A DNA stretch of 64,000 nt, taken from assembly GCA_000004985.1 (NCBI GenBank), contig GG738926.1; one strand, given 5' to 3'. Under the pieces are notes generated by a model. It was not told the DNA's origin. It did no database searches and saw only the letters and a list, made by a program, of their open reading frames with translations. Below are positions 5,057-37,300 of this stretch, one piece after another; within the stretch, counting starts at the first letter, position 1, and the number at the start of each line of letters is the position of its first letter. The stretch is from Naegleria gruberi (lineage: Eukaryota). Made by a program: the position numbers and the translations under genes.

Positions 5057-7380
5057 NNNNNNNNNNNNNNNNNNNNNNNNNNNNNNNNNNNNNNNNNNNN
5101 NNNNNNNNNNNNNNNNNNNNNNNNNNNNNNNNNNNNNNNNNNNNNNNNNNNNNNNNNNNNNNNNNNNNNNNNNNNNNNNNNNNNNNNNNNNNNNNNNNNN
5201 NNNNNNNNNNNNNNNNNNNNNNNNNNNNNNNNNNNNNNNNNNNNNNNNNNNNNNNNNNNNNNNNNNNNNNNNNNNNNNNNNNNNNNNNNNNNNNNNNNNN
5301 NNNNNNNNNNNNNNNNNNNNNNNNNNNNNNNNNNNNNNNNNNNNNNNNNNNNNNNNNNNNNNNNNNNNNNNNNNNNNNNNNNNNNNNNNNNNNNNNNNNN
5401 NNNNNNNNNNNNNNNNNNNNNNNNNNNNNNNNNNNNNNNNNNNNNNNNNNNNNNNNNNNNNNNNNNNNNNNNNNNNNNNNNNNNNNNNNNNNNNNNNNNN
5501 NNNNNNNNNNNNNNNNNNNNNNNNNNNNNNNNNNNNNNNNNNNNNNNNNNNNNNNNNNNNNNNNNNNNNNNNNNNNNNNNNNNNNNNNNNNNNNNNNNNN
5601 NNNNNNNNNNNNNNNNNNNNNNNNNNNNNNNNNNNNNNNNNNNNNNNNNNNNNNNNNNNNNNNNNNNNNNNNNNNNNNNNNNNNNNNNNNNNNNNNNNNN
5701 NNNNNNNNNNNNNNNNNNNNNNNNNNNNNNNNNNNNNNNNNNNNNNNNNNNNNNNNNNNNNNNNNNNNNNNNNNNNNNNNNNNNNNNNNNNNNNNNNNNN
5801 NNNNNNNNNNNNNNNNNNNNNNNNNNNNNNNNNNNNNNNNNNNNNNNNNNNNNNNNNNNNNNNNNNNNNNNNNNNNNNNNNNNNNNNNNNNNNNNNNNNN
5901 NNNNNNNNNNNNNNNNNNNNNNNNNNNNNNNNNNNNNNNNNNNNNNNNNNNNNNNNNNNNNNNNNNNNNNNNNNNNNNNNNNNNNNNNNNNNNNNNNNNN
6001 NNNNNNNNNNNNNNNNNNNNNNNNNNNNNNNNNNNNNNNNNNNNNNNNNNNNNNNNNNNNNNNNNNNNNNNNNNNNNNNNNNNNNNNNNNNNNNNNNNNN
6101 NNNNNNNNNNNNNNNNNNNNNNNNNNNNNNNNNNNNNNNNNNNNNNNNNNNNNNNNNNNNNNNNNNNNNNNNNNNNNNNNNNNNNNNNNNNNNNNNNNNN
6201 NNNNNNNNNNNNNNNNNNNNNNNNNNNNNNNNNNNNNNNNNNNNNNNNNNNNNNNNNNNNNNNNNNNNNNNNNNNNNNNNNNNNNNNNNNNNNNNNNNNN
6301 NNNNNNNNNNNNNNNNNNNNNNNNNNNNNNNNNNNNNNNNNNNNNNNNNNNNNNNNNNNNNNNNNNNNNNNNNNNNNNNNNNNNNNNNNNNNNNNNNNNN
6401 NNNNNNNNNNNNNNNNNNNNNNNNNNNNNNNNNNNNNNNNNNNNNNNNNNNNNNNNNNNNNNNNNNNNNNNNNNNNNNNNNNNNNNNNNNNNNNNNNNNN
6501 NNNNNNNNNNNNNNNNNNNNNNNNNNNNNNNNNNNNNNNNNNNNNNNNNNNNNNNNNNNNNNNNNNNNNNNNNNNNNNNNNNNNNNNNNNNNNNNNNNNN
6601 NNNNNNNNNNNNNNNNNNNNNNNNNNNNNNNNNNNNNNNNNNNNNNNNNNNNNNNNNNNNNNNNNNNNNNNNNNNNNNNNNNNNNNNNNNNNNNNNNNNN
6701 NNNNNNNNNNNNNNNNNNNNNNNNNNNNNNNNNNNNNNNNNNNNNNNNNNNNNNNNNNNNNNNNNNNNNNNNNNNNNNNNNNNNNNNNNNNNNNNNNNNN
6801 NNNNNNNNNNNNNNNNNNNNNNNNNNNNNNNNNNNNNNNNNNNNNNNNNNNNNNNNNNNNNNNNNNNNNNNNNNNNNNNNNNNNNNNNNNNNNNNNNNNN
6901 NNNNNNNNNNNNNNNNNNNNNNNNNNNNNNNNNNNNNNNNNNNNNNNNNNNNNNNNNNNNNNNNNNNNNNNNNNNNNNNNNNNNNNNNNNNNNNNNNNNN
7001 NNNNNNNNNNNNNNNNNNNNNNNNNNNNNNNNNNNNNNNNNNNNNNNNNNNNNNNNNNNNNNNNNNNNNNNNNNNNNNNNNNNNNNNNNNNNNNNNNNNN
7101 NNNNNNNNNNNNNNNNNNNNNNNNNNNNNNNNNNNNNNNNNNNNNNNNNNNNNNNNNNNNNNNNNNNNNNNNNNNNNNNNNNNNNNNNNNNNNNNNNNNN
7201 NNNNNNNNNNNNNNNNNNNNNNNNNNNNNNNNNNNNNNNNNNNNNNNNNNNNNNNNNNNNNNNNNNNNNNNNNNNNNNNNNNNNNNNNNNNNNNNNNNNN
7301 NNNNNNNNNNNNNNNNNNNNNNNNNNNNNNNNNNNNNNNNNNNNNNNNNNNNNNNNNNNNNNNNNNNNNNNNNNNNNNNN
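5057..7380. other. Large assembly gap (about 2.3 kb of N)
   Basis: Run of N characters. The X-filled ORFs across it are artefacts. Confidence 0.99.
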
Positions 7381-14704: not shown

Positions 14705-17700
14705 TTATTTAACAATCTTTAGGAATCTTTTGCATTGTCTTGCCATTTCCTCCTTAAATTCAAGCAATTCCTCACCTCCTCCTTCACAATTCTTCACAAC
14801 TGCCAAATAAAATCTCTTAATTCCCACATGATTATTAATAACAAATAAACTTAGTGAGTCAACTTGTTCCTCTGTTAAAAAACCTTCCTTTTCTAATTTA
14901 AATAAAATTGCCTGAATTTCAATCCATATATTCTCCTCACTATTTTCAAATGTTGATAAAGATGATCTGGATTGTTGTTGATTTTTCTGATCATTTTCCT
15001 CATCTGATAATTTGTTAACTTCTGCTGCTGATGTTGAAATATTTTGTTGTGAATATCCATCTGATAATAATATTTCATCTTCTGATCCATTTACAATTTC
15101 AAATACTTCATGTTCATTCTTTAATTCTTCTAAACTATTATTGCTACTATTGCTAGTATTGCTATTATTCTGATTCATCATAGCAATAACATCATTTTCA
15201 TCATTATTATTAATATTACTATTATTGGATGATTCTACAACTTGAGAATTATTCACAATTTGTACATTTTGATCATTATTTACATTACTACTATTATTTA
15301 CATTATTATTATCAATATTATTATCATGATTATTATTCATTGCATTAATTTTAATAGTTTCTAATTTATCATTCAATATATTTTCAACTCTTTCTTTTAA
15401 ATTATTTAACTTGTTAACAATTTGAGATGCACTTGGTCTCTTTTCAGGTTCAATTTCCACACAATCAAATAAAATTTGTAAATATTCATCTTTTCCAATT
15501 AATTTTTGAACATTTGTTACTTTTTCATTTGGTTTTAAATAATCTGAAATTTTCTTCTTATTAGTTGGAATTTTAAAATCAATTTTTAATTGACCTGAAT
15601 ATAACATGAATGCGACAATACATCCAAATGACCAAATATCAACTTTTTCACTATACGAATCTTCATTATAAATTTCAGGAGCTAAATATAACATTGTACC
15701 ACATGCTGTTCTTGCAAGTGAACTTTGAACATTTTTAGCTAATCCAAAATCACTTAATTTCATAATTGGTTTCATATCATTACTATAATTAGTATTATTA
15801 TTATTAGTATTATTTGAATTTTCAAATGTTACAAAAATATTTGATGGTTTTAAATCTCGATGTATAATATTTCTCTCATGTATATATTCCAATGCTAATG
15901 CTATTTGAATTAACCATTCAATTATTTCCAATTCATTCCAATTTCCAATTTTATTCCAATAATTAACTTTCCTAACATAGAACATGCTTAAATCACCTGA
16001 TTCACAATATGGCATTATAATATTCAATACAAGTGATACCATTTCATTATTATTATCACCACCACTATTAGTATTATTATCATGTTGTTTTTCCTGATTA
16101 ATCATCATCATTCGTTTTTCAATAAAAAATGATAAAGTAGGTAAAATGTTAACATGTTTCAATTGTTGTAGAATTAAAATTTCATTAAATACACTATCAG
16201 ATGCAACTGATTTGTTTCTACCAACATTATCATTAAATATTATATCCATCCTTTTAAGTGCATAATATTTACTTGTAGAAATATTTCCATTATTATTATT
16301 ATTATTAGAATGAATAGAATTATTATTTAATAAGGAAGAAGTTACAGATGCATTTTCATCTCTCACCAGAAATACGCATGCTTGTCCACCTCTTCCTAAT
16401 AATCTTTCAATTACATAATTTCCAACTCTTGTTTCATTTAAAAAGGAAACTTTACGCAAATCACTAATTGAATTTTCATTTAAATTAGTTTCTAATAACC
16501 ACATATCATTAGCTCTAGCAACTAATTTATCTTTATCAACAATTCCACCAAATATTAATGCTTTACCACTATTAGAAATTGGTTGAATGATAAATCCAAT
16601 ACGCGCAGGTAGTGAATTTCTTTTATCATTCATTATTTCATTATTATTATCACTCATATTACCATTTATGGTAGTATTGAAGGTATTATTAAATTTTTTC
16701 CATTGTAAAGTTTCCAAATCCAATACAAAAGTATTATTTAAATAAAGTTTTTTATAAACACCTCCTACTAGTATTAGAAATTTACCCAAAACAACACATT
16801 TATGATCACTTCTCCTTTCAGGATAATCCTCCGATGGATCTCTATCAGGTAATAAATTCTTCCATCTATAGGAATCAATATCAAATAACCATAAATCATT
16901 GGTTTGAATTCCCTTTTCTAAAACTCCACCAAATAATAGAATTTTATCTTTAACTAATCCACACCAATGATTATATCTAGGAAGTGGTATATTATTATTA
17001 TTAGAAATATTACCATTATTAGAAGTATTATTAGAAGTATTATTAATATTTTGATATTCAATTTTTTTCCATTCAAATATAAAATTCTTATAATCTAAAA
17101 TATTTAATAACCACATATCATTTCTAAATGAACCATCATATCCACCATATAATAATATTGAATTATTACTAATAGGTGTTAGAGAATGATAATATCTTGC
17201 TGTTGGTATTTTAATTCCTAAATTCATTGTAAAACCATCTTTAATCATGAAATTATGTGAATCTGTAAATGTTGGAATCCAAGTTGAGTATTGTGAATTT
17301 TTAAATAGTGAATAATATTCATTATCTTCTTGTTCAATAGTAGATGATGATGATTGTGATGATTGTGAATGAGATGAATGAGATGAATTAGATGGTTTGT
17401 AATAACCTTTTAATTTACCTTCATGCCAAGTCATAGTTTCCAAATTTAGAAACCAAACATCGTTTAATCGAATTTTTTTATCTGCAATTCCACCAAATAT
17501 TAAAATAAATTTACTTTCTGGAATTGTACACATTCCATGACGTTCTCTTGGAATTGGAAATAAATATTTTAGGCAATGTGTTGGTGATTTTACTATATTT
17601 GGAATATTTTTCTTTAATTGGTTTAATTCTTCAAATATTAAATTTGATATTTTCTTTAAAAATTCAACCATTTTAGTTTGATAATTTTTAAATATTATTT

Positions 17701-18505
17701 CCAAATTTAATTTTTTAGATTGATTTACATTTTCCATATTTGGTAATTTTCCAATTTTCTTTTTTAGAAATAATTTTAAAGAAACTTCCAAACTTTCATT
17801 AGAAAGTGAATCTTGTCTCAAAATTTGATTCATTAAATTATTTAAATAAGTATGTAAATAGGTTAATTCATCTTTTCTATTATTAGATTTTATAAAATTG
17901 GCAACATTTGTAAATTCAACAATTGCACCTGGATCTATAAAATCAAATTTTCTAATCATGTATGTTTCTAATTTTACAATAAATATTACAATATATTACA
18001 ATAAATATTATAATATATTACAATATTGTAAAATGTATTATTAAAATAACTTACTAGGAGAAAATAACCAAACATTATTAATTCTCTTAAATCCAATACT
18101 AATACCTCCCATAAATGCAATAATACTTTCATTATCATCGATGTTATTAGATGATGATATCAGACAATCTAATACACATGAAGCATGTCCTGATAATGGA
18201 GGTGGTATATCTGTTTTACTCCAATCAGTAATATCATCACTATTATTATTATTATTAACATTATTAGTAGTAGTACTTTTATTGTTGAATGATGATGATG
18301 ATGAAGAGGATGAATTTCTATTGGATGATTTTTTTGATTGTTTATTCCGATGATCATCAAATAATTTATTATTATTATTTAATGATGATGATGGTGAGGA
18401 TGATGATGAATTATTTTGATGAGTTGAAGAAGTGAATGTTTTTAAATCATTGAGAGGAATGGATTGGAAGGAAATGGAAAGTGTGGAAAGTGTTTTATTT
18501 TCCAT
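14705..18505 (-). CDS. Kelch-repeat Ser/Thr protein kinase: N-terminal kelch beta-propeller, C-terminal kinase domain, long Asn/Ser-rich tail. Two ORFs (18505..18041 and 17959..14705) joined by a short AT-rich intron around 17960-18040.
   Basis: Repeated kelch signatures (LFGGxx...NDLWLFDxxxxxW, FGG motifs) in the N-terminal half. Kinase motifs YVIERLLGRGGQACVFL (Gly loop), HRDLKPSNIF, DFGLAK, APE, DIWSFGCIV. GTAAGT donor at the end of the upstream ORF. Confidence 0.75.
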
Positions 18506-21887: not shown

Positions 21888-22595
<708 letters not shown>

Positions 22596-22635: not shown

Positions 22636-24717
22636 TTACACAACTGGATCAATTGAAATATAAGTCTCACAAGTACCAATTCCTTTCACTTTGACACCAG
22701 TTCTATGGGTAAACTTAGAGGCAAGATCTTGTGGTAATTTTTCATATGTTTTTGTACAAATTTGAAGGTGATTAGTAAGACTTGTAGATTGCATTCTTGA
22801 AGCAAAATTTACAGTAGCTCCCCAAACGTCATAAGCAGGCTTCTTCTTACCGACAATACCAGCAACAACTTCACCTGTACTCAAACCAATTTTAACATTC
22901 ACTTTGAATTTAGATGTTTTGTTCATATCAGAAACAATTTGTGCCATTTCAAAGGCTCCTCTTACTGCATTTTCCGCAAAATTATTATTCTGTTCTGGTA
23001 AACCACTTGCCAACATATCTATTTCTCATTAGAATCCAATTGAATTGAAATACTTACAATTATCACCAATGGTTTTGATCTTTTCCAATTGATATTTTTG
23101 TATCGTAACATCAAACTTTTCGAAAATGGAATCCAAAAAGCTTATCAGATTCTTTGGAGAAATTTCCATTGACAATTGGTTAAAGTTCTCAATGTCACTA
23201 AACATGATTGTTGCTTGATCGTGGAAGTCGTGAATAAGATCACCATTTACAACTCTAGAGGCTATAGAGGCTGGGAAAATTTGTTCAGCCAAGTGTTTGT
23301 ACTGTTCTGTCTTTGTAATGACGGCTGTCATATCTCTGGCAAACCCAAGGAAAATTCTTTGGTCCTTGTCATCTTTGATTTCAGTAATTTTAAGTTCAAC
23401 AGGAAAAATTTCTCCTGATTTTCTTTTGCCATTAACAACTCTGGTTTTGTCAACAACTCTCTTAATACCAGTCTTGATGTATCTGTTCACAAAGGCATTG
23501 TGATTGATAGCAATTTCATCAGGCATAATTACCGTCAGTGAATTGCCAATAATTTCACTTGCTCTAATACCAAAAACATGTTCAGCAGCAGGATTCCATG
23601 TGTTAACAATTGATAGAGTATCAATGGCAACGATAGGAATTGTTGAAAGTTGTGTTACTGCACTGTGGAACTGGAATGATTGTTGTTGAACTTCCCCTTC
23701 CTCAGCAGTATTATTTCCTTCATTATTTTCTTCTCCAATTAAACTCTTTCTATCCATACTAGCCTGACTGTTACCATCACCATCCTCGTCATCGTCTTCA
23801 TTGTCATCAGCAGCTGCAGCATTCTGATTCTTTAAAACATCTTCAAAATTACTTCCTTTCTGCATACCTTCAGGTTGAAGATAACAAATGAAGAATGGTA
23901 AACCATTTTTGATCATTTCGGTAATTCGTACACCAACCTTCTTGATCGGAGTTTTTGGATCCTTAATATCATACACAACCTTTTCTGCAAGCATTGATTT
24001 AGATCTAAGCTGCAAGTAATCTCTAATTCTTTTCTGAAGTTCACCTGCACTATTTTCATTCAAAATAAGGCAAACATTCTTCGACTGCAAATCTTTGAGG
24101 GATTTTCCAAACAATTCCTCACCGAAACTATTCATTGAATGAATATTTGTTTTTGTATCTACAACGAACACTGGACACATGCAAGCAGAGATATGTTCAT
24201 CCATTTGGAATGCTGGTTCTCCTTGTTCTCCATCATTATATTCTTCAACACCATCAAATTCATCTTCTGTTGGGAGGTCATCCTTGAAATCCACTATTGG
24301 TTTGTTATTGTTCATTTCCTCAATGTCATTATTTTGAGGAACATTATTTATATTGTTATTGTTGGTATTATTAATATCTTGTTTTTGAATATTATTATTT
24401 ACTGGAGGATTAGAAGAAGAAGATGTTGTCGATGGATTTTGTTGTTTCTCTGGGATATACTTTGGTTGATCCTCATAAGTCTTTGTTTTTTGTACATTAG
24501 CCTTTGTGTCGTTCTTACTAGCAACGTTATTATCCTTACTATTGTCCTTCTTTTGAGAGTTTCCTTGAGGTGGTTTGCTAACAATCGCTCCCATCGTGTA
24601 GTGTTTTTTTCTGTAGTTTTTGTTTGCGGGAAAATGGTTATTGTAGTGGTTGATTGTTTGAAAGGCAGTGATGTTGCTTTTTGTTCGCCACGCTGGTCCA
24701 TAATAGACTACCCACAA
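22636..24717 (-). CDS. Class III nucleotidyl (adenylyl-type) cyclase with two PAS domains. The catalytic domain is split by a 39-nt intron (23017..23055).
   Basis: PAS signature PIVAIDTLSIVNTWNPAAEHVFG...RKSGEIFPVELKITEI...FARDMT. Cyclase motifs FSDIENF..., EKIKTIGDN|YMLASGLPE (restored by removing the GTAAGT...TAG intron), YDVWGATVNFASRMQS. K (KIKTIGD) and D (YDVWG) at the specificity positions suggest ATP. Confidence 0.75.
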
Positions 24718-25031: not shown

Positions 25032-26270
25032 TTAAATATCAGTAACAACACCATTACTCATTGAACTGATGGTACTTCTTGTATCTGAATCATCATCATT
25101 TTTTTTCTTTCTAAAACTGAATACAGTACTAACACTTCTCACACTCTTTGTTAAACTTCTTAAATAGGTTTTGGCATCAAAATTTCCTTGATTTGCTGCT
25201 TTTCTATACCATTCCAATGCAACCTTTTCAGATTTTTCAATTCCACCCACTCCTTTCAAATAGAAATTAGCCAATTCACATTGAGCTCTGTCATTTCCTT
25301 GTAGAGCTGATTTTTGGAACCATTCAAATGCCCTTGTTAAATCCTTCTTTACAATTCTATTACCATCTTTACAAAATAATCCTAATTTACATTGAGCATC
25401 TGCATCAGATTGTTGAGCTGCCTTTTCAAAACATTCTAATGCCTTCTCTAATGATGCTGTTGTACCCTTTCCTAATTCATACATTAATCCTAAATTGTAA
25501 AAAGCTTCTGGAACATTTTGCATTGAAGATTTTTCATAATATTCGAATGCAATTGAATAATTTGATTGAATTCCAGCAAATGTTGGAGAATTTGGAATTC
25601 CCTGTTCATATAAAACACCAATACTATATTGAGCATGAGCATGTCCTTGATCAGATGATTTCTTATACCATTCAAATGCTTTCTCTTGAGATTCTAATAG
25701 AAATTCACCTTCCTCATACATGATTCCAATTCTATATTGTGCATCTGAATTACCTTGGAGTGCTGATTTTTCAAACAACTCGACTGCCTTTTCTAAATTC
25801 CTTGAAATATTGGAATTTCCATTGTAATAAATTAGACCAAGATTATATTGAGCAGCTGAATGACCTTGTTGAGCATAATTTTGTTGCATTCTCATGTTGG
25901 TGGTCAATTGAGTTTTCAAATTTTCAAGATGAAACTCTTCACATATTTTACACATTTTACAATATGTGTAAAAAGTCATATCACTATCGTAAATACCATA
26001 TTTAAACCAATCTAAAATGTATGTAAAACATTTTGGGTCACAATCAATAAAATAAATTGGCGAATTGTCAAGAATTTGGTCTTGATTCATCACTTTGACA
26101 TTTGTCATAGATTGATGGATTGACTTTTGACTAGTTATCATTGAATTTAATAAATTATTTGGTTCTCTATTATTATTAAACGTAAAAGATGCAACCGACA
26201 TGAATTTACCACCAACATTTAAATTTACTATTTGGTCAACTAATTTTTCGTTATTTTCTTGCATTGCCAA
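25032..26270 (-). CDS. BTB/POZ (T1/KCTD-type) domain protein with about 8 Sel1-like (TPR-type) repeats
   Basis: N-terminal NVGGKFMSVASFTF...YFIDCDPKCFTYILDWFKYG (T1-type BTB). Repeated AQYxLGxxYxxG...EKAxEWYxKAAxQG Sel1 units. Confidence 0.7.
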   Translation of the reverse strand: MAMQENNEKLVDQIVNLNVGGKFMSVASFTFNNNREPNNLLNSMITSQKSIHQSMTNVKVMNQDQILDNSPIYFIDCDPKCFTYILDWFKYGIYDSDMTFYTYCKMCKICEEFHLENLKTQLTTNMRMQQNYAQQGHSAAQYNLGLIYYNGNSNISRNLEKAVELFEKSALQGNSDAQYRIGIMYEEGEFLLESQEKAFEWYKKSSDQGHAHAQYSIGVLYEQGIPNSPTFAGIQSNYSIAFEYYEKSSMQNVPEAFYNLGLMYELGKGTTASLEKALECFEKAAQQSDADAQCKLGLFCKDGNRIVKKDLTRAFEWFQKSALQGNDRAQCELANFYLKGVGGIEKSEKVALEWYRKAANQGNFDAKTYLRSLTKSVRSVSTVFSFRKKKNDDDSDTRSTISSMSNGVVTDI

Positions 26271-26551: not shown

Positions 26552-29500
26552 TTATATTTGTTTCATTTCAACATTTGTAGCTGGCATTACATTTCCATTA
26601 CTCAAATTCTTATGTGAATATTTTCCTGATAATATTTTCACCACAATTGCAATAATAATGATCAGTAATAATAATAAGGGAATTAAGGAAAGAAATGCTA
26701 AATAAGCTAAATTATTAGAAGGTGTTGGTTCTGAAAGTGTTGTTTGTCTATCAACAAGGACATTTAATTTAGCTTCTTTCCACATTATAGGTTGCATTAA
26801 CATGACATTTGACTTGTCGTCATAAACAATCATTTTGGCAATTGCTTGAGTTTCATCTCCAAAACTCATTTCATGATAAATTATTCTATTCTGCACTGAT
26901 ATAGATCTATATAATTCCAAACTTTGATAATATGAAATTTTGATATAGCTCATCACATTCTTACTTGATTGGGGATGTGTGAAATAATTTTCTGGGAAAA
27001 GAGCTTCCAATCGAACAGTTTCTCTCAGTTTAGCAGACGAAACATTCCATCTCAGTATTATTTCATCACTGTTAAAACCTTTAAATTGACATTGTTGACC
27101 TACAAACGTTGGTTGACAAGAACAAGTTCCATTCAATTGACAATTTCCATTTCCTGAACAAACTTTTGAATCTGAAAATGAAATATTGTAACATGAATAT
27201 GGAATTGAACAATCTAGACCTGAATACATGACATTTGAACATTGACATTTGTTGTAATCGACACATATTCCATTTTGGGAACAAACAGCATTATCTGTTG
27301 CATTCAATCCAAAACAAATTGGAATTCTACATTCAGGACCTGTGTACATTGTGTCATTGAAGCATTTACATGTATCCACATCAATACATTTGCCATGTCC
27401 ACCACCACAAACATATGGATCATCACTGGACATATCAAAACAAACAATCTTTTCACAATTCACACCACTATATCCATGTTGACATTCACACATATCAAAA
27501 TCATAACATTGTCCATGTCCAGAACAAACACTTGAATTGGTTGAACTAATTCCAAAACAGGAAGGTGATTTTGGAAGTGCCAACTTTCTAAGATACATAT
27601 TATCTGCAATGAATAAATCACCATCTGCATTAATGGTCATAGTTTCAGGTCCTATCAATGTCGTATCTGTACCCAATTGATAATTCATTGTTGGATTGGA
27701 ACTTTGTCCATTTCCTGCTATGGTAATAATACTTCCATTGAGAAGAACTTTGAAAATTCTATAATTGTCTCTATCAGAAATGAAGATTTCTCCTTCATCA
27801 TTAACAACTACACTTGTAGGACTAATCAGATTCAAATAATATTGAGTAAACACATTTTCCGACTAAACTTACCTTTTAAGGGAAGCATCAATGGCCAAAA
27901 TTCCATCTTGAAAATCATCCAAAATCTCATTGGAAAATCTTGTTGGTTGTGGAGCAGGAGGTGAATAGATACCATTTCCTGCAACTGTTGTAATGGTACT
28001 ATCATTTGCTGAAATCTTTCTAATTCTTCCATTTCCAGTATCTTTTTCATATTCGAAACTTTGAACAGTTCAACAACTTACCTGCAATGTAAATATCACC
28101 AGTTGATCGATGATAAAATCCACCAGCTGGATTAGCCAACTTGGCATATTCTGGTAAACCATTATCACCACCATATCCAATTGAAGTTCCACAAAAATCT
28201 GAAATTATTCCACTTTGTAAATCAACTTTTCTAATTTTGGATGAACCACTCTCAACTATATAAATCATATTTGAATAATCACCAAAAACTTGAACTGGTC
28301 GATTTAACATGGCACTTGTTGCTGGTCCACCATTTCCTGAATTTCCCAAACGTGAAATGCCAGCAAATAATATTTGTTGACCTGTTGTCACATCCATTTT
28401 GTAAACATTATTGTAAAACACAACTGCATAATAAATATTACCAGAATCGTCAACAAATAACCCACGCGGAACATTAACCATCAAATTTCCACCAATATAA
28501 TCAATAAATTTCGTATACAATTGACGATCCCCAATTGAGTAATAAATCTTTCTTAATAATCCACCTTGCACATCACCAATATAAATATCCTGATGATTAT
28601 TAATCTTGGCTGATTTGGAATTTATAAATGGAAATATGTATTGACCATATGTGGCATCGATAGCTCTAATTCCATCACCTGATGAAAAAGAATGACCATT
28701 ACCAACATAGGTATCAATTATTTGAGTTGGAATGTTGATTCTTCTTACTCTCAATTGACCAGTATCTAAACAAATTAGTTTCGTATAACAAAATTCTATT
28801 AGAAATAAAGACATACCTCCAATATAGATAAATTGATCATCTTTCGAAATGTAAACATCTTGAGGAAGCATAAAAGAACTTGTCAATGCATTCATGTTAT
28901 CTCCATTGTAACCTTGTTGTCCATTTCCCGCCACAAATCTCAAATAACCATCTTTATCAATTTTCTTTACTTTTTCGTTTGAACTTTCCACCCAGAAAAC
29001 TTCGCCTTGTGAGTTTAGTTTAACTCTTCTTGGTGTGAAAAGTTTGGCAGTTGAAGCTAGGACATTTTGATCATCACCAAGTTTACCACTGATACCTGCT
29101 AGTGTTGAAATTATTCCATTAGAATCTATCTTTCTAATGAGATAACTATTTGTATCTGAAATAATATTCGAAATGTTGTGAATTTAAAAACTAACCTGCA
29201 ATGTAAACTTCATTCTTCTTCTCATCGACATAAACTCCCTGAGGCATTGCTAAGAAGATTTGAGTTGCCAAATTACCAGTGTTAACCAGTTTACCATTTC
29301 CAGCAATTGTGTAAATTTTCCCATTCGAAACTTTCTTAATCTTTGCATTTAAAGTATCACAAATGTAAATCTCTTCCTGTTGATTTACATAGATACTATC
29401 TGGTGTATTCAAGACAGCTCCAAGTGCAGAATCTCCATCCATAGAATCACCTACATTCGAATAAAATTAACATTCGTCCGTATATTTCTCTCAACAACTT

Positions 29501-29971
29501 ACCATTACCACTCTCACTTCCAGCAACTGTTTCCAAACTTCCATCATTCAACACCTTAACAACATAATTCTTCATTACAAAGTAAACAATTGGTGGTAAG
29601 TAAATACTCTTCTCTAAAACAAATATATGATTTGGTTCGTAGGGAGTTTTCATCAAGGTTGAAACGATTCCAATCTTGGAAACCTTTCGAATTCTTTTGG
29701 AGGTGTATTCAGCAATGTACATGGTACCATCAGATGTAACATGAATTCCACTTGGACTATTAACACATGTAGTATTACCATAATAACCATCTCCACAATT
29801 ATCTGTTCCACTAATTGTTGTTAGCATGTAATTATTATCACTACCATTGGACAATGAAATTAACATGGTTGCAATAACCAACAATAGAGATAATATGACA
29901 ATGATTGGCCATGATAATTTTCTTCTTCTTCTTGTTGAATAACAAGCATTTCGGATAAAAGAAACACTCAT
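26552..29971 (-). CDS. Multi-exon type-I membrane protein: signal peptide, NHL-repeat beta-propeller, EGF-like Cys repeats, C-terminal TM anchor. Introns at 29452..29503, 29156..29195 and 27822..27872; the junction near 28047-28076 is unresolved.
   Basis: N-terminal LSWPIIVILSLLLVIATMLISL signal. Repeated NHL signatures (IYIADxxNxRIRKVxxNGxIxTxAGNG). EGF-like CSGHGQCYDFDMCECQHGYSGVNCE repeats. TM segment LAFLSLIPLLLLLIIIIAIVV. GTAAGT/GTTAGT...AG introns of 40-52 nt restore continuous NHL repeats. Confidence 0.65.
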
Positions 29972-34331: not shown

Positions 34332-37300
34332 ATGGTCATTCGTACAGAATCTTCAACGTCTCTGTCGAGTGTATTACACGAAACATCATCCACCAATGGA
34401 TCAGTTTCCAATAGCACATCTAGTAGTGCTTCTTCATCATCCTTCACAAATACAAGTAATACACTCAGATATGGTGATATTATTTCATTGGCTATTTACT
34501 TTAATCCAACCATTCAATCATCACAACAACAACAACAAACAATTTCATCATCATCCTTTGATAAATTAAATAATTCAATGATGGATATTTTACATGATAG
34601 AAATTCTACTACAACACCATCAACACCAACTTCCAACTCTCCATTTCCATCATCACCATCCGCACCTACTACCACTACAACAACAACAAGCCTTGAACAA
34701 ATTGTTGGGTTTTTATCGATAAAGGGTTTACCTGGTCATACAAGATGTGGTCTATCTGTTGATGAATCAATTTTAAAGTCTTTTGACAATTCATTGTTTA
34801 TGGTCTGTCAAGGAGATACTTATACAGCAAGAAAAAAGTTTAACAAATTTCAAAGTCATCTTCAAAGTTTACAAAATTCCAATAATAATGGTGCTGTCAA
34901 TCATGTTAATAGTACTAATAATTTGAATGCTAGTAGTTATAGTTTTGGATCTTCATTTAAAAATCAACAAGTTAATACTAATAACAAACAACAAGTAATG
35001 ATTAATAATTTAAATTATCAAAATCAGTTAAATGAATTGAAGGAACGTATGAATCGTGAAGATCAGGAAAATACAATTGAAAAGGAAAGATCGTGGGGTA
35101 AACCTATACTTTATGGTCAACGTATTCAATTGTATCATATCAAATCTGGCATGTATTTAAATGTACTGAGATCGAATGCTGATTTGGAAAAATCTTCATT
35201 GAAATTATCTTTGAGTGAAGGTGATAGAATGTGTCATTTTCAATTTGCTCCACACTTTAAATTCAGAACAGAAGGAGAACCAATTCGTTTGACTGATAAG
35301 GTTATTATTATGAATGAAAAAACCAAACATTCTGTTCACATTTCACACTACAAGTATGTGAGACCAATTATTGTTAGAGATTTTGATAGATATGAAGTGA
35401 ATGCTAGTAGTCATCCTGGTGATAATATTTGGATTTTAAGATTGTACAGATCATACCTTCCTATGGATCAATTATTTATCAAGGGAGGCGATACAATTCG
35501 TATTGTACATCGTGACTTGTTGGGTGCTCTCTATCATCCAACTCCTTCTATTGAGAATACATCTGCTACTGTAGTTTCAACACCAACAACATCTTCAGAC
35601 GAAAGTTGTTCACTCAACTTGAATGGTAAATATAGTAGCTCTAGTATTACTACTCTATTCCAAATTGAAGGTCTTGATAGTTCGAGAGGTGGAATCATGT
35701 ACTATGCAACTCCTTGTAGATTTAAACACGTTTCTACAGGTAAATATATTGCTGCTAAACAAGTCGAAGTTCCTGATATTGAAGGAAACTCAGGTTCTCT
35801 TATTGGAAATAGTAACAACAATACAGCAACTACTACTGGTGCCACCAATAATACTGCCACATCAACCAATACAGTAAGTGCAGCTAGAAGTGGTTGGAGA
35901 AATTTACGTCGTCGTGTTAAAATCAAATTGAAATTAGTCTTGACAGATAATCCTAGAGATGAAGCTAGTGTATTCTATTTGTACTCTTCCGAGAATTCTA
36001 ATCAATTCACAACTTCTGATCCAATTCTTGGCCAAAGTTTACTTCGTATCAAACATGCTCAATCCAATACATGGCTCAGAGCCAACGATTTGAGTAACAA
36101 GATTACTTTTAATAATAGCAATAACAATAGTAATAACTTGATGGAATTATGGTTTGACTTGATTCAAAGAGAAAAAGACGTATTTTCAATGGAACATGTT
36201 AATAATACTTTCCAAATTAACTTGATCAAGGAAATTTATCCAATTCTAACAAATTTTGATATTAATTCTCATTATCAAAGAAATGACATTGACATTTTGT
36301 TGAATGCTCTCAAGTTAGTCATTTATTTATGTACAGATTCGATACAAGAAGATCCATTGAAACGTGAAGGGTCTCCTCATACTGAAATTCAGAACCACTT
36401 TAAAGAAATGAATATTATTGATGCCATCTTTACAATTATAGATTTATTAGATAACAATAACAATGCTATCAAAATGACAAGCACCCCTAGAGACTCATCT
36501 CCAATGTTACGTCGTTCTAGTATGCTGACTGATAACAATGAAACAACTGTATATAGTACGAGATTTAATAGTATTCTTGTACAAATGTGCTACAGAGCCA
36601 TTAAGCAATTGGCTAAACAAAATATTGTCAACTGTACACATGTGCTAAATAAGTATTTTACAACCATGCAAGATCACTTGTCGAGAGACGTTGGAGGTCA
36701 AGAGGTTTCTAATGCTCTTGTTGAAATTATTCACAACAATATGGAAGTTTTGGAACAAATTCCTAGTGAGAAGATTAATCACTTTTTCAAATTGATTACC
36801 ACTAGACAAAAGAAACCACTTTTTGTTTCCTTTTTGTCTAATCTGTGTAGATGTGGAGAAAGACCGGTTACAAAGAATCAAAAACATCTTGTCATGCTTC
36901 TTTCTGAAATTGATTGTAGAAACGTTTTCTATCTTCCAGAATATGATGATAGAGATGGTAAAATTTATGTTTACTGCAATGATGTGGATTCTATTGAATC
37001 TGAATCTCAAGTAGCAATAGATGAAGGAGTTACAGTCATTGATGAAACCAAAAAGGCAGAGCGTATTCTCTTGTCGGAACTTTCATCATACAATAACCAA
37101 ATGTTTAGAATTTTAATAGAAGGACTAAGCTTGTTATCTTCTTTATGTGTTGGTAGACATTTGGCAGGTATTAACTATGTTTCTGAATTATTACCATTGG
37201 ACTTGGTTATGGGAGTTGTTGAAAACGAATCTTATGGTATTGAGTTGAGAAGTGCCATGTGTGAAATCTTAGAATACTGTTTCCTTGATAACACCTCAAC

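Follow-up and report, generated by a model that had tools for sequence, protein, structure and literature searches.

The 64,000-nucleotide window analysed here, a stretch of contig GG738926.1 of Naegleria gruberi NEG-M, carries on its minus strand a two-exon gene (locus NAEGRDRAFT_75565) for a class III nucleotide cyclase preceded by two PAS domains, one of which resembles the haem domain of the rhizobial protein FixL. Two open frames, 23029-24717 and 22636-23016, are parted by a short segment that holds a spliceosomal intron. The first ATG lies at 24594 (MGAIVSK...) and the frame is open back to 24717; an earlier reading of this DNA from its letters (hereafter the sequence-only reading) had begun the coding span at 24717, which is merely where the open frame begins, and had not named the minus strand. 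The spliced product of 639 amino acids matches XP_002669478.1 (EFC36734.1, UniProt D2W2F0) residue for residue. The exon structure that we derived is that of the public gene model, and the gene is already annotated and unstudied. Both the gene model and the assignment to this organism are almost certainly right, and the base composition of the stretch analysed, ~33% GC, agrees with the published figure for N. gruberi (PMC8296547). As the product is identical to an N. gruberi protein and its close homologues are all heterolobosean, the contrast previously drawn with ACA, ACB and ACG of Dictyostelium has no bearing on it. The gene is laid out as follows.

24595..24717, minus strand: probable 5′ untranslated region, an open frame without ATG
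23058..24594, minus strand: exon 1, codons 1–512 and the first base of codon 513; the spliced translation equals XP_002669478.1
23019..23057, minus strand: spliceosomal intron, 39 nt, phase 1, GTAAGT...CTAAT...ATAG, containing a TAA stop in frame; its codon position is shared by relatives
22636..23018, minus strand: exon 2, residues 513–639 and the stop codon (22636-22638); C-terminal half of the cyclase domain with D576, N583, R587 and K624

The PAS–PAS–cyclase architecture proposed by the sequence-only reading is borne out by a Pfam profile search, which finds Guanylate_cyc and, in two separate stretches, the PAS family. AlphaFold models were built from a six-sequence alignment and, with a mean predicted local distance difference test score (pLDDT) of 53 and 60, were used for fold assignment only. 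From the N terminus to the C terminus, the protein is divided into the following parts, in which pN denotes non-synonymous divergence.

24574..24594, minus strand: MGAIVSK, candidate N-myristoylation signal (Gly2, Ser6, Lys7); M1 and G2 invariant
24208..24573, minus strand: N-terminal disordered region, Asn/Lys/Asp-rich (rest of residues 1–129); pLDDT 22–32; pN 0.44–0.50 between species
23869..24204, minus strand: PAS1, residues ~131–242, a divergent PAS domain of the FixL lineage without haem ligand
23695..23865, minus strand: acidic low-complexity linker, residues 244–300; pLDDT <50
23323..23655, minus strand: PAS2, residues 314–424, FixL-type, from Pfam PAS and PAS_9 and from phmmer matches to solved structures
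23500..23502, minus strand: codon of His365, predicted proximal haem ligand, equivalent to His200 of BjFixL and His194 of RmFixL
23482-23484, minus strand: codon of Arg371, equivalent to Arg206 of BjFixL
23440..23442, minus strand: codon of Arg385, equivalent to Arg220 of BjFixL
23224..23322, minus strand: linker from PAS2 to the cyclase domain, residues 425–457, including ...QYKHLAEQIFPASIASRV; nearly invariant among orthologues
22657..23223, minus strand: class III cyclase homology domain, residues 458–633, interrupted by the intron; Pfam Guanylate_cyc (PF00211), E 1.7e-51, with D467, K507, D511, D576, N583, R587 and K624

PAS2 is a close sequence relative of the haem domains of FixL. In phmmer searches against solved structures it matches RmFixL of S. 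meliloti (1d06) with E 5.6e-19 and BjFixL (1dp6) with E 2.8e-16, and the seven best distinct solved-structure sequences are all FixL haem domains (E 5.6e-19 to 2e-15). The next matches are to the haem domain of EcDOS/DosP (E 4e-7), and LOV domains reach no better than E ~0.01. A homologue search with PAS2 as sole query gave no match, just four candidate sequences having words in common with it. A LOV or flavin sensor was considered for PAS2 and rejected, the FixL matches being better than those to LOV by ~16 orders of magnitude. In FixL, His200 is the proximal haem ligand, R206 contacts a haem propionate and R220 contacts the bound O2. In a joint alignment, PAS2 of every heterolobosean sequence keeps the equivalents of BjFixL M192, H200, R206, Y207, R220, L236 and I238, residues that PAS1 has lost, and the distal-pocket positions I215, L236 and I238 of BjFixL are Val, Leu and Ile in PAS2. 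His365, Arg371, Tyr372 and Arg385 are invariant across six heterolobosean sequences, from Naegleria to Acrasis. Haem binding in this PAS cluster is described as depending primarily on the His of the F-alpha helix (PMC10468136). R200 and I209 of SmFixL, which correspond to Arg371 and Val380, were selected as mutagenesis targets in a study of how conformational changes are coupled to ligand release from the SmFixL haem-PAS domain (PMC10765370). The sequence-only reading had named haem and O2 only as candidate ligands and had missed that PAS2 is specifically of the FixL type. On these grounds PAS2 probably binds haem, while O2 as the signal sensed has about an even chance of being correct.

PAS1 is far more divergent. 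Searched alone, it scores 24.2 bits against Pfam PAS (cut-off 22.6), which is marginal, and it has no sequence match among solved structures at E up to 1. The strand and helix order of a PAS domain is nevertheless present in both AlphaFold models, with pLDDT ~80–90 in the full-length model, and the top Foldseek matches are FixL haem PAS domains (E 5.6e-6). At the positions of BjFixL H200, R206 and R220, PAS1 has Leu, Asp and Val/Ile in Naegleria, Willaertia and a further relative (P0005). The proximal His of PAS1 is kept in Acrasis only, which has the ligand His in both PAS domains. PAS1 is a degenerate copy of the same lineage as PAS2 and is not classed as a haem sensor.

Upstream of PAS1, the N terminus begins with Met-Gly in all nine family members recovered (9/9), whereas Ser/Thr at position 6 occurs only in the Naegleria, Willaertia and P0005 sequences. 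The context for N-myristoylation is Met-Gly, a small residue at position 3 and Ser/Thr at position 6. The shared Met-Gly of the nine relatives suggests tethering to the membrane through an N-myristoyl group, and the protein is probably N-myristoylated. No hydrophobic stretch in the 639-residue product reaches a transmembrane score. The description of the enzyme as soluble is thus probably wrong in the sense relevant to signalling, even though a transmembrane segment is lacking. The Acrasis kona relative (AKO1_010388, P0006; L004:4512-6239), whose locus is present on both L004 and L005, has no long disordered tail at its N terminus; L004 and L005 are two contigs.

The cyclase domain of the spliced product scores 174.9 bits against Guanylate_cyc (cut-off 21.9) and aligns with the C1 and C2 domains of AC5, AC8 and AC9 and with mycobacterial Cya among solved structures. 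D467 (FSDIENF) and D511 (TIGDNY) align with the two metal-binding Asp of the C1 domains of AC5, AC8 and AC9, while K507 (KIKTIGD) and D576 (YDVWG) match, in the C2 domains, the Lys in EKIKTIG and the Asp in YDIWG. N583 and R587 (TVNFASRM) align with the VNVASRM motif of the C2 domains, which holds the transition-state Asn and Arg. From these alignments, every canonical class III catalytic residue is judged to be present. The Lys/Asp pair of C2 domains specifies the adenine of ATP. The ATP specificity that the sequence-only reading had predicted from Lys and Asp is upheld by the alignment of K507 and D576 with the substrate residues of mammalian C2 domains, and adenylyl specificity is likely. 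Since all catalytic residues lie in one chain, the enzyme would form a homodimer with two equivalent sites, as is established for class III cyclases. The best single-domain matches among solved structures are to mycobacterial Cya of the Rv1625c type (135 bits). In the linker, the QYKHLAEQIFPASIASRV segment aligns with the stretch just before the C2 domain of AC9 and looks like the transducer element found ahead of cyclase domains of class IIIa. The mycobacterial Cya matches and this AC9-like segment together fit subclass IIIa.

The intron interrupts the cyclase domain just after D511. On the minus strand the junction reads ...AAA ACC ATT GGT GAT AAT T / GTAAGTATTTCAATTCAATTGGATTCTAATGAGAAATAG / AT ATG TTG GCA..., and splicing fuses GDN with YMLASGLPE in frame. 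Without splicing, the frame terminates 11 codons on (...GDNCKYFNSIGF, then stop). The branch A of the CTAAT motif would be 10 nt from the 3′ end. The sequence-only reading was right that a 39-nt GTAAGT...TAG intron exists, but placed it at 23017-23055, 2 nt away from its real position at 23057..23019. It also held that splicing restores the metal-binding motif; D511 is already encoded in exon 1, and what splicing restores is the rest of that strand and the C-terminal 127 residues, including D576, N583 and R587.

An intron at the same codon (GDN/YML) is found in N. fowleri (42 nt) and N. lovaniensis (50 nt), with unrelated internal sequence, and again, at 42 nt, in a heterolobosean contig from SRR636569 whose protein is 62% identical. 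Retention of the 50-nt version of N. lovaniensis would shift the frame. The Willaertia magna orthologue has no intron at this site, and its gene is intronless. Three introns of 37, 40 and 40 nt interrupt the Acrasis kona relative at other positions, and the remaining introns of the N. fowleri and N. lovaniensis genes measure 49–80 nt. These include an extra intron within PAS1 near residue 237, of 59 nt in N. fowleri (L001:4001-6091) and 80 nt in N. lovaniensis (L002:4001-6074), and a third intron of 49 nt in N. fowleri, directly before the last three codons. The absence of both the PAS1 intron and the third intron from N. gruberi indicates that introns were gained or lost within the genus. A strict scan of the window found five GTAAGT introns, of 39, 52, 83, 87 and 274 nt. 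Work on N. fowleri set the minimum intron length at 30 bp after inspection of predicted genes (PMC8296547). Taken with the lengths of 42, 42 and 50 nt for the same intron in relatives and of 37, 40 and 40 nt in Acrasis, this minimum speaks against the suggestion that 39 nt is near the lower size limit. The intron is at the short end for N. gruberi yet normal in the lineage, and because introns of 37–42 nt are usual in this cyclase gene family, its size is unremarkable.

In comparisons with N. fowleri and N. lovaniensis, synonymous sites are saturated (pS 0.63–1.05), while pN is 0.07–0.14 across the two PAS domains and each half of the cyclase domain; for exon 2 alone, pN is 0.14 and pS 0.63–0.74. 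Exon 2 is under strong purifying selection, and the combination of saturated pS and low pN means that its translation follows the spliced frame. In an ENA assembly annotated by a prokaryotic gene caller, a copy of this gene with 99% identity lies on contigs of 3,626 bp. The caller cut this copy at the intron into two open reading frames (ORFs), P0001 (521 amino acids) and P0042 (126 amino acids), and the latter fragment is the representative of the cluster that contains the true N. gruberi protein.

Orthologues of the cyclase occur in N. fowleri, N. lovaniensis, Willaertia and Acrasis. The Willaertia orthologue is conserved both in the haem pocket of PAS2 and elsewhere, apart from two residues of the metal site described below. 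Naegleria has at least 81 cyclases, some of them photoactivated (PMC9928731), and N. gruberi has 50–80 PAS proteins (PMC10468136). Using PAS2 together with the first half of the cyclase domain, we searched 1.84 billion representative proteins and obtained 58,741 matches with E up to 0.001. The top of this list is occupied by giant proteins with up to 13 FixL-like PAS repeats. Dozens of proteins of 1,700–5,500 amino acids (P0044–P0072 and others) have ~13 tandem PAS repeats, each 30–37% identical to PAS2, and one giant PAS-repeat protein contains 31 matched stretches. Among the best 149 representatives, a local hidden Markov model search placed a cyclase domain after the last PAS repeat in 10; these ten include a diatom cluster (Conticribra weissflogii, MMETSP transcripts) and one Leptospiraceae protein. 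The diatom cyclases (P0092, P0144 and P0174) are preceded by 3–7 FixL-type PAS repeats, and seven repeats of P0092 have the His...Arg signature. In the literature that we covered, neither Naegleria nor diatoms are described as having a haem-PAS cyclase of the FixL type, a weak negative given that most subscription journals lay outside that coverage.

Among characterised systems, FixL of B. japonicum and S. meliloti is the nearest solved relative of PAS2, sharing the proximal His, the propionate Arg, the O2 Arg and the distal hydrophobic residues. BjFixL also has the same tandem layout, with a haemless PAS domain ahead of the haem-PAS domain. The two differ in that the Naegleria output is a class III cyclase and not a histidine kinase with FixJ, in the eukaryotic host, in the FG loop and in that haem binding is here a prediction. 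EcDOS/DosP and AxPDEA1 likewise combine a haem-PAS sensor and a cyclic-nucleotide enzyme in one polypeptide, but make or degrade cyclic di-GMP (c-di-GMP) and not cyclic AMP (cAMP). Moreover, the haem of EcDOS is six-coordinate, with a Met as its distal sixth ligand that is absent from PAS2. In trypanosomatids, which are excavate protists, HemAC-Lm and the OACs have a haem sensor fused to an adenylyl cyclase of class III at the C terminus, with the O2-to-cAMP logic that is proposed here (PMC7719234); their sensor is a globin and not a PAS domain, so that the likeness is an analogy between non-homologous sensors. With class IIIa cyclases, such as Cya of the Rv1625c type and the mammalian C1/C2 pair, the Naegleria enzyme shares the six canonical catalytic residues, the Lys/Asp pair and a transducer-like segment. 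It differs in that it lacks a membrane domain and has a single cyclase domain per chain and an atypical first metal motif, DIENFN. Photoactivated cyclases (Euglena/Naegleria PAC, bPAC and the LOV-cyclase mPAC) similarly join a small sensor through a helical linker to a class III cyclase; their sensors are BLUF or LOV flavin domains, whereas PAS2 matches LOV weakly and FixL strongly. The multi-PAS cyclases of diatoms (the Conticribra weissflogii KAL7466838.1 cluster, P0092) share with it His...Arg FixL-type PAS domains, the same cyclase type and an alignment that continues through the linker. They differ in having 3–7 haem-type PAS repeats, against one live and one degenerate domain in Naegleria, are 30–36% identical and are uncharacterised.

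The explanation that we favour, with confidence a little above even, is that the gene encodes a lipid-anchored haem-PAS adenylyl cyclase in which the FixL-type PAS2 links O2 to cAMP. The product would be a cytosolic protein of 639 amino acids, probably N-myristoylated, with four parts. The first is the disordered N-terminal tail. PAS1, which has no haem ligand, would probably serve in dimerisation or signal relay, PAS2 would probably carry haem b on His365, and the class IIIa cyclase homodimer would convert ATP to cAMP. On uptake of O2 by the ferrous haem, Arg385 would contact the bound O2, and binding would move the FG loop and the beta-sheet of PAS2 in a FixL-like manner. The change would be relayed through the helical linker and the transducer element to the cyclase dimer, thereby raising or lowering its activity. 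In this way cAMP would report oxygen tension in an amoeba that shifts between oxic and anoxic habitats. A precedent is provided by the globin-coupled, oxygen-sensing adenylyl cyclases of trypanosomatids (PMC7719234).

Several observations weigh against this explanation. The conserved His and Arg are necessary for a FixL-type O2 sensor, not sufficient, and the FG loop reads TGIKRVVDKT where BjFixL has TSDPHIIGIG. AlphaFold is weak for PAS2 (pLDDT ~51–79) and for the linker (<50). Naegleria reportedly depends on its prey for haem (PMC9928731), although prey-derived haem does not exclude haemoproteins in Naegleria. In the cyclase domain, the first metal-site motif is FSDIENFN, in place of the usual F-x-D-I-x-G-F-T. 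Furthermore, both metal Asp are replaced in the Willaertia orthologue (L003:4001-5935, P0004), FSDIENF becoming FCGIENF and TIGDNY becoming TIGENY. This loss means that catalysis is not indispensable to every member of the family, and the Willaertia orthologue may be a catalytically dead sensor protein.

Other explanations differ mainly in what they take PAS2 to do. One holds that PAS2 does contain haem but that the physiological signal is nitric oxide (NO), carbon monoxide (CO) or the redox state of the iron. The same haem pocket serves such a reading equally, FixL domain structures have been solved with NO, CO and cyanide bound, and a redox switch is known in FG214, a related protein with haem-PAS (bioRxiv 10.64898/2026.03.15.711900). 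We consider it unlikely, since the Arg equivalent to BjFixL R220, which is tied to O2 recognition, is invariant, and at the position of the distal sixth ligand of EcDOS there is no Met, the local residues being D-K-T-R. According to another explanation, the PAS domains are cofactor-free modules for dimerisation or protein interaction, and the cyclase is constitutive or otherwise controlled, for instance by the disordered N-terminal tail or by a myristoyl switch. A haem ligand is plainly lacking in PAS1, for many PAS domains no ligand is known (PMC10468136) and the case for haem is built from sequence. It is doubtful, however, that such a role would preserve the haem-pocket residues of PAS2 from Naegleria to Acrasis despite saturated synonymous sites, while PAS1, equally fit for dimerisation, lost precisely those residues.

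Explanations that concern the enzyme, its origin or the integrity of the gene have less to recommend them. A guanylyl cyclase or an enzyme of dual specificity is very unlikely: K507 and D576 occupy the ATP-specifying positions, where guanylyl cyclases have Glu, Cys or similar residues, and the best solved-structure matches are adenylyl cyclases. Guanylyl specificity was rejected on the alignment to these structures, even though the Pfam family spans both activities and the automatic UniRef names clash (the N. gruberi and N. lovaniensis proteins are called 'adenylate cyclase', those of N. fowleri and Acrasis 'guanylate cyclase'). Highly improbable is the picture of a cyclase class new to Dictyostelium, perhaps acquired by recent horizontal transfer from bacteria and carrying an exceptionally small intron. 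It could appeal to the closest named cyclase domains outside Heterolobosea, which are bacterial (37–42% identity), and to the closest solved PAS domains, those of rhizobial FixL. The organism, however, is Naegleria gruberi, the gene has spliceosomal introns and orthologues across Naegleria, Willaertia and Acrasis, diatoms have similar multi-PAS cyclases, and introns of 37–42 nt are normal in this gene family. No bacterial protein exceeds ~44% identity, so any transfer would be ancient. A recent transfer of the PAS–cyclase fusion is unlikely. Finally, it is scarcely credible that the gene is a pseudogene or a mis-assembly in which the 39-nt segment is retained to give a truncated, inactive product. 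The segment does contain an in-frame stop, and prokaryote-style callers split the gene there into 521 and 126 amino acids, but exon 2, read in the spliced frame, shows strong purifying selection, the intron has canonical splice signals, and its position is common to four sequences in which its length is not always a multiple of three.

Directly downstream of the cyclase lies a second gene.

21888..22592, minus strand: PFA-DSP (Y_phosphatase2) gene; Pfam E 1.1e-58; 43 nt downstream of the cyclase

This same-strand neighbour had been recognised by the sequence-only reading with a spacer of 44 nt. In N. gruberi, Willaertia, N. lovaniensis and N. fowleri, PFA-DSP is the next gene after the cyclase and has the same orientation, with spacers of 43, 46, 108 and 157 nt, respectively (loci outside N. 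gruberi: N. fowleri L001:6249-6929, N. lovaniensis L002:6183-6845, Willaertia L003:5982-6587). The PFA-DSP protein is 91–94% identical over ~175 amino acids between genera, far above the conservation of the cyclase. In Acrasis the phosphatase is not adjacent to the cyclase, and we therefore rejected an operon-like functional link across all Heterolobosea.

The genes that flank this pair are ordinary eukaryotic ones, encoding a Kelch-kinase, a leucine-rich repeat (LRR) protein, a BTB-Sel1 protein and NHL/EGF proteins. In the product of the upstream neighbour (25032-26270, minus strand), a BTB/POZ domain precedes six or more Sel1 repeats (Pfam Sel1, E 1.7e-57). The further candidate GTAAGT introns that join long frames in the window lie at 18054-17968 (minus strand, 87 nt), 28081-27808 (minus strand, 274 nt), 29502-29451 (minus strand, 52 nt) and 35874-35956 (plus strand, 83 nt). 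One of them connects the Kelch ORF 18041-18505 with the Kelch-kinase ORF 14705-17959, and two fall within the NHL/EGF (teneurin-like) ORFs at 26552-29971. Assembly gaps (runs of N) occupy positions 792-841 and 5057-7380 of the window, and GC content is lower in its first 20 kb (17–31%) than in the remainder (~31–37%).

As first written, the finding was ordinary: an annotated gene, from an organism that has dozens of cyclases coupled to sensors, and an intron whose size is typical of the lineage. The gene encodes an uncharacterised PAS-regulated class III cyclase to which a haem-PAS sensor is plausibly joined, a combination that is itself uncharacterised. If PAS2 binds haem, the protein would sense oxygen or gas directly and couple it to cAMP in a free-living amoeba whose habitats are by turns oxic and anoxic; the pathogen N. 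fowleri has a near-identical orthologue. The protein is small and free of membrane-spanning segments, and it could also serve as a gas-controlled cAMP tool. More broadly, and with confidence just short of even, we propose that Heterolobosea, including N. fowleri, share an adenylyl cyclase, tethered to the membrane, in which a haem-PAS domain of the FixL type senses O2 directly, a pairing uncharacterised in any organism, and that the same module is present up to seven-fold in diatom cyclases. Characterised haem-PAS sensors drive kinases and c-di-GMP enzymes, and in protists the O2-sensing adenylyl cyclase known so far relies on a globin. An O2-sensing haem-PAS cyclase, if true, would suggest that a route from gas to cAMP is widespread among eukaryotes and has gone unrecognised.

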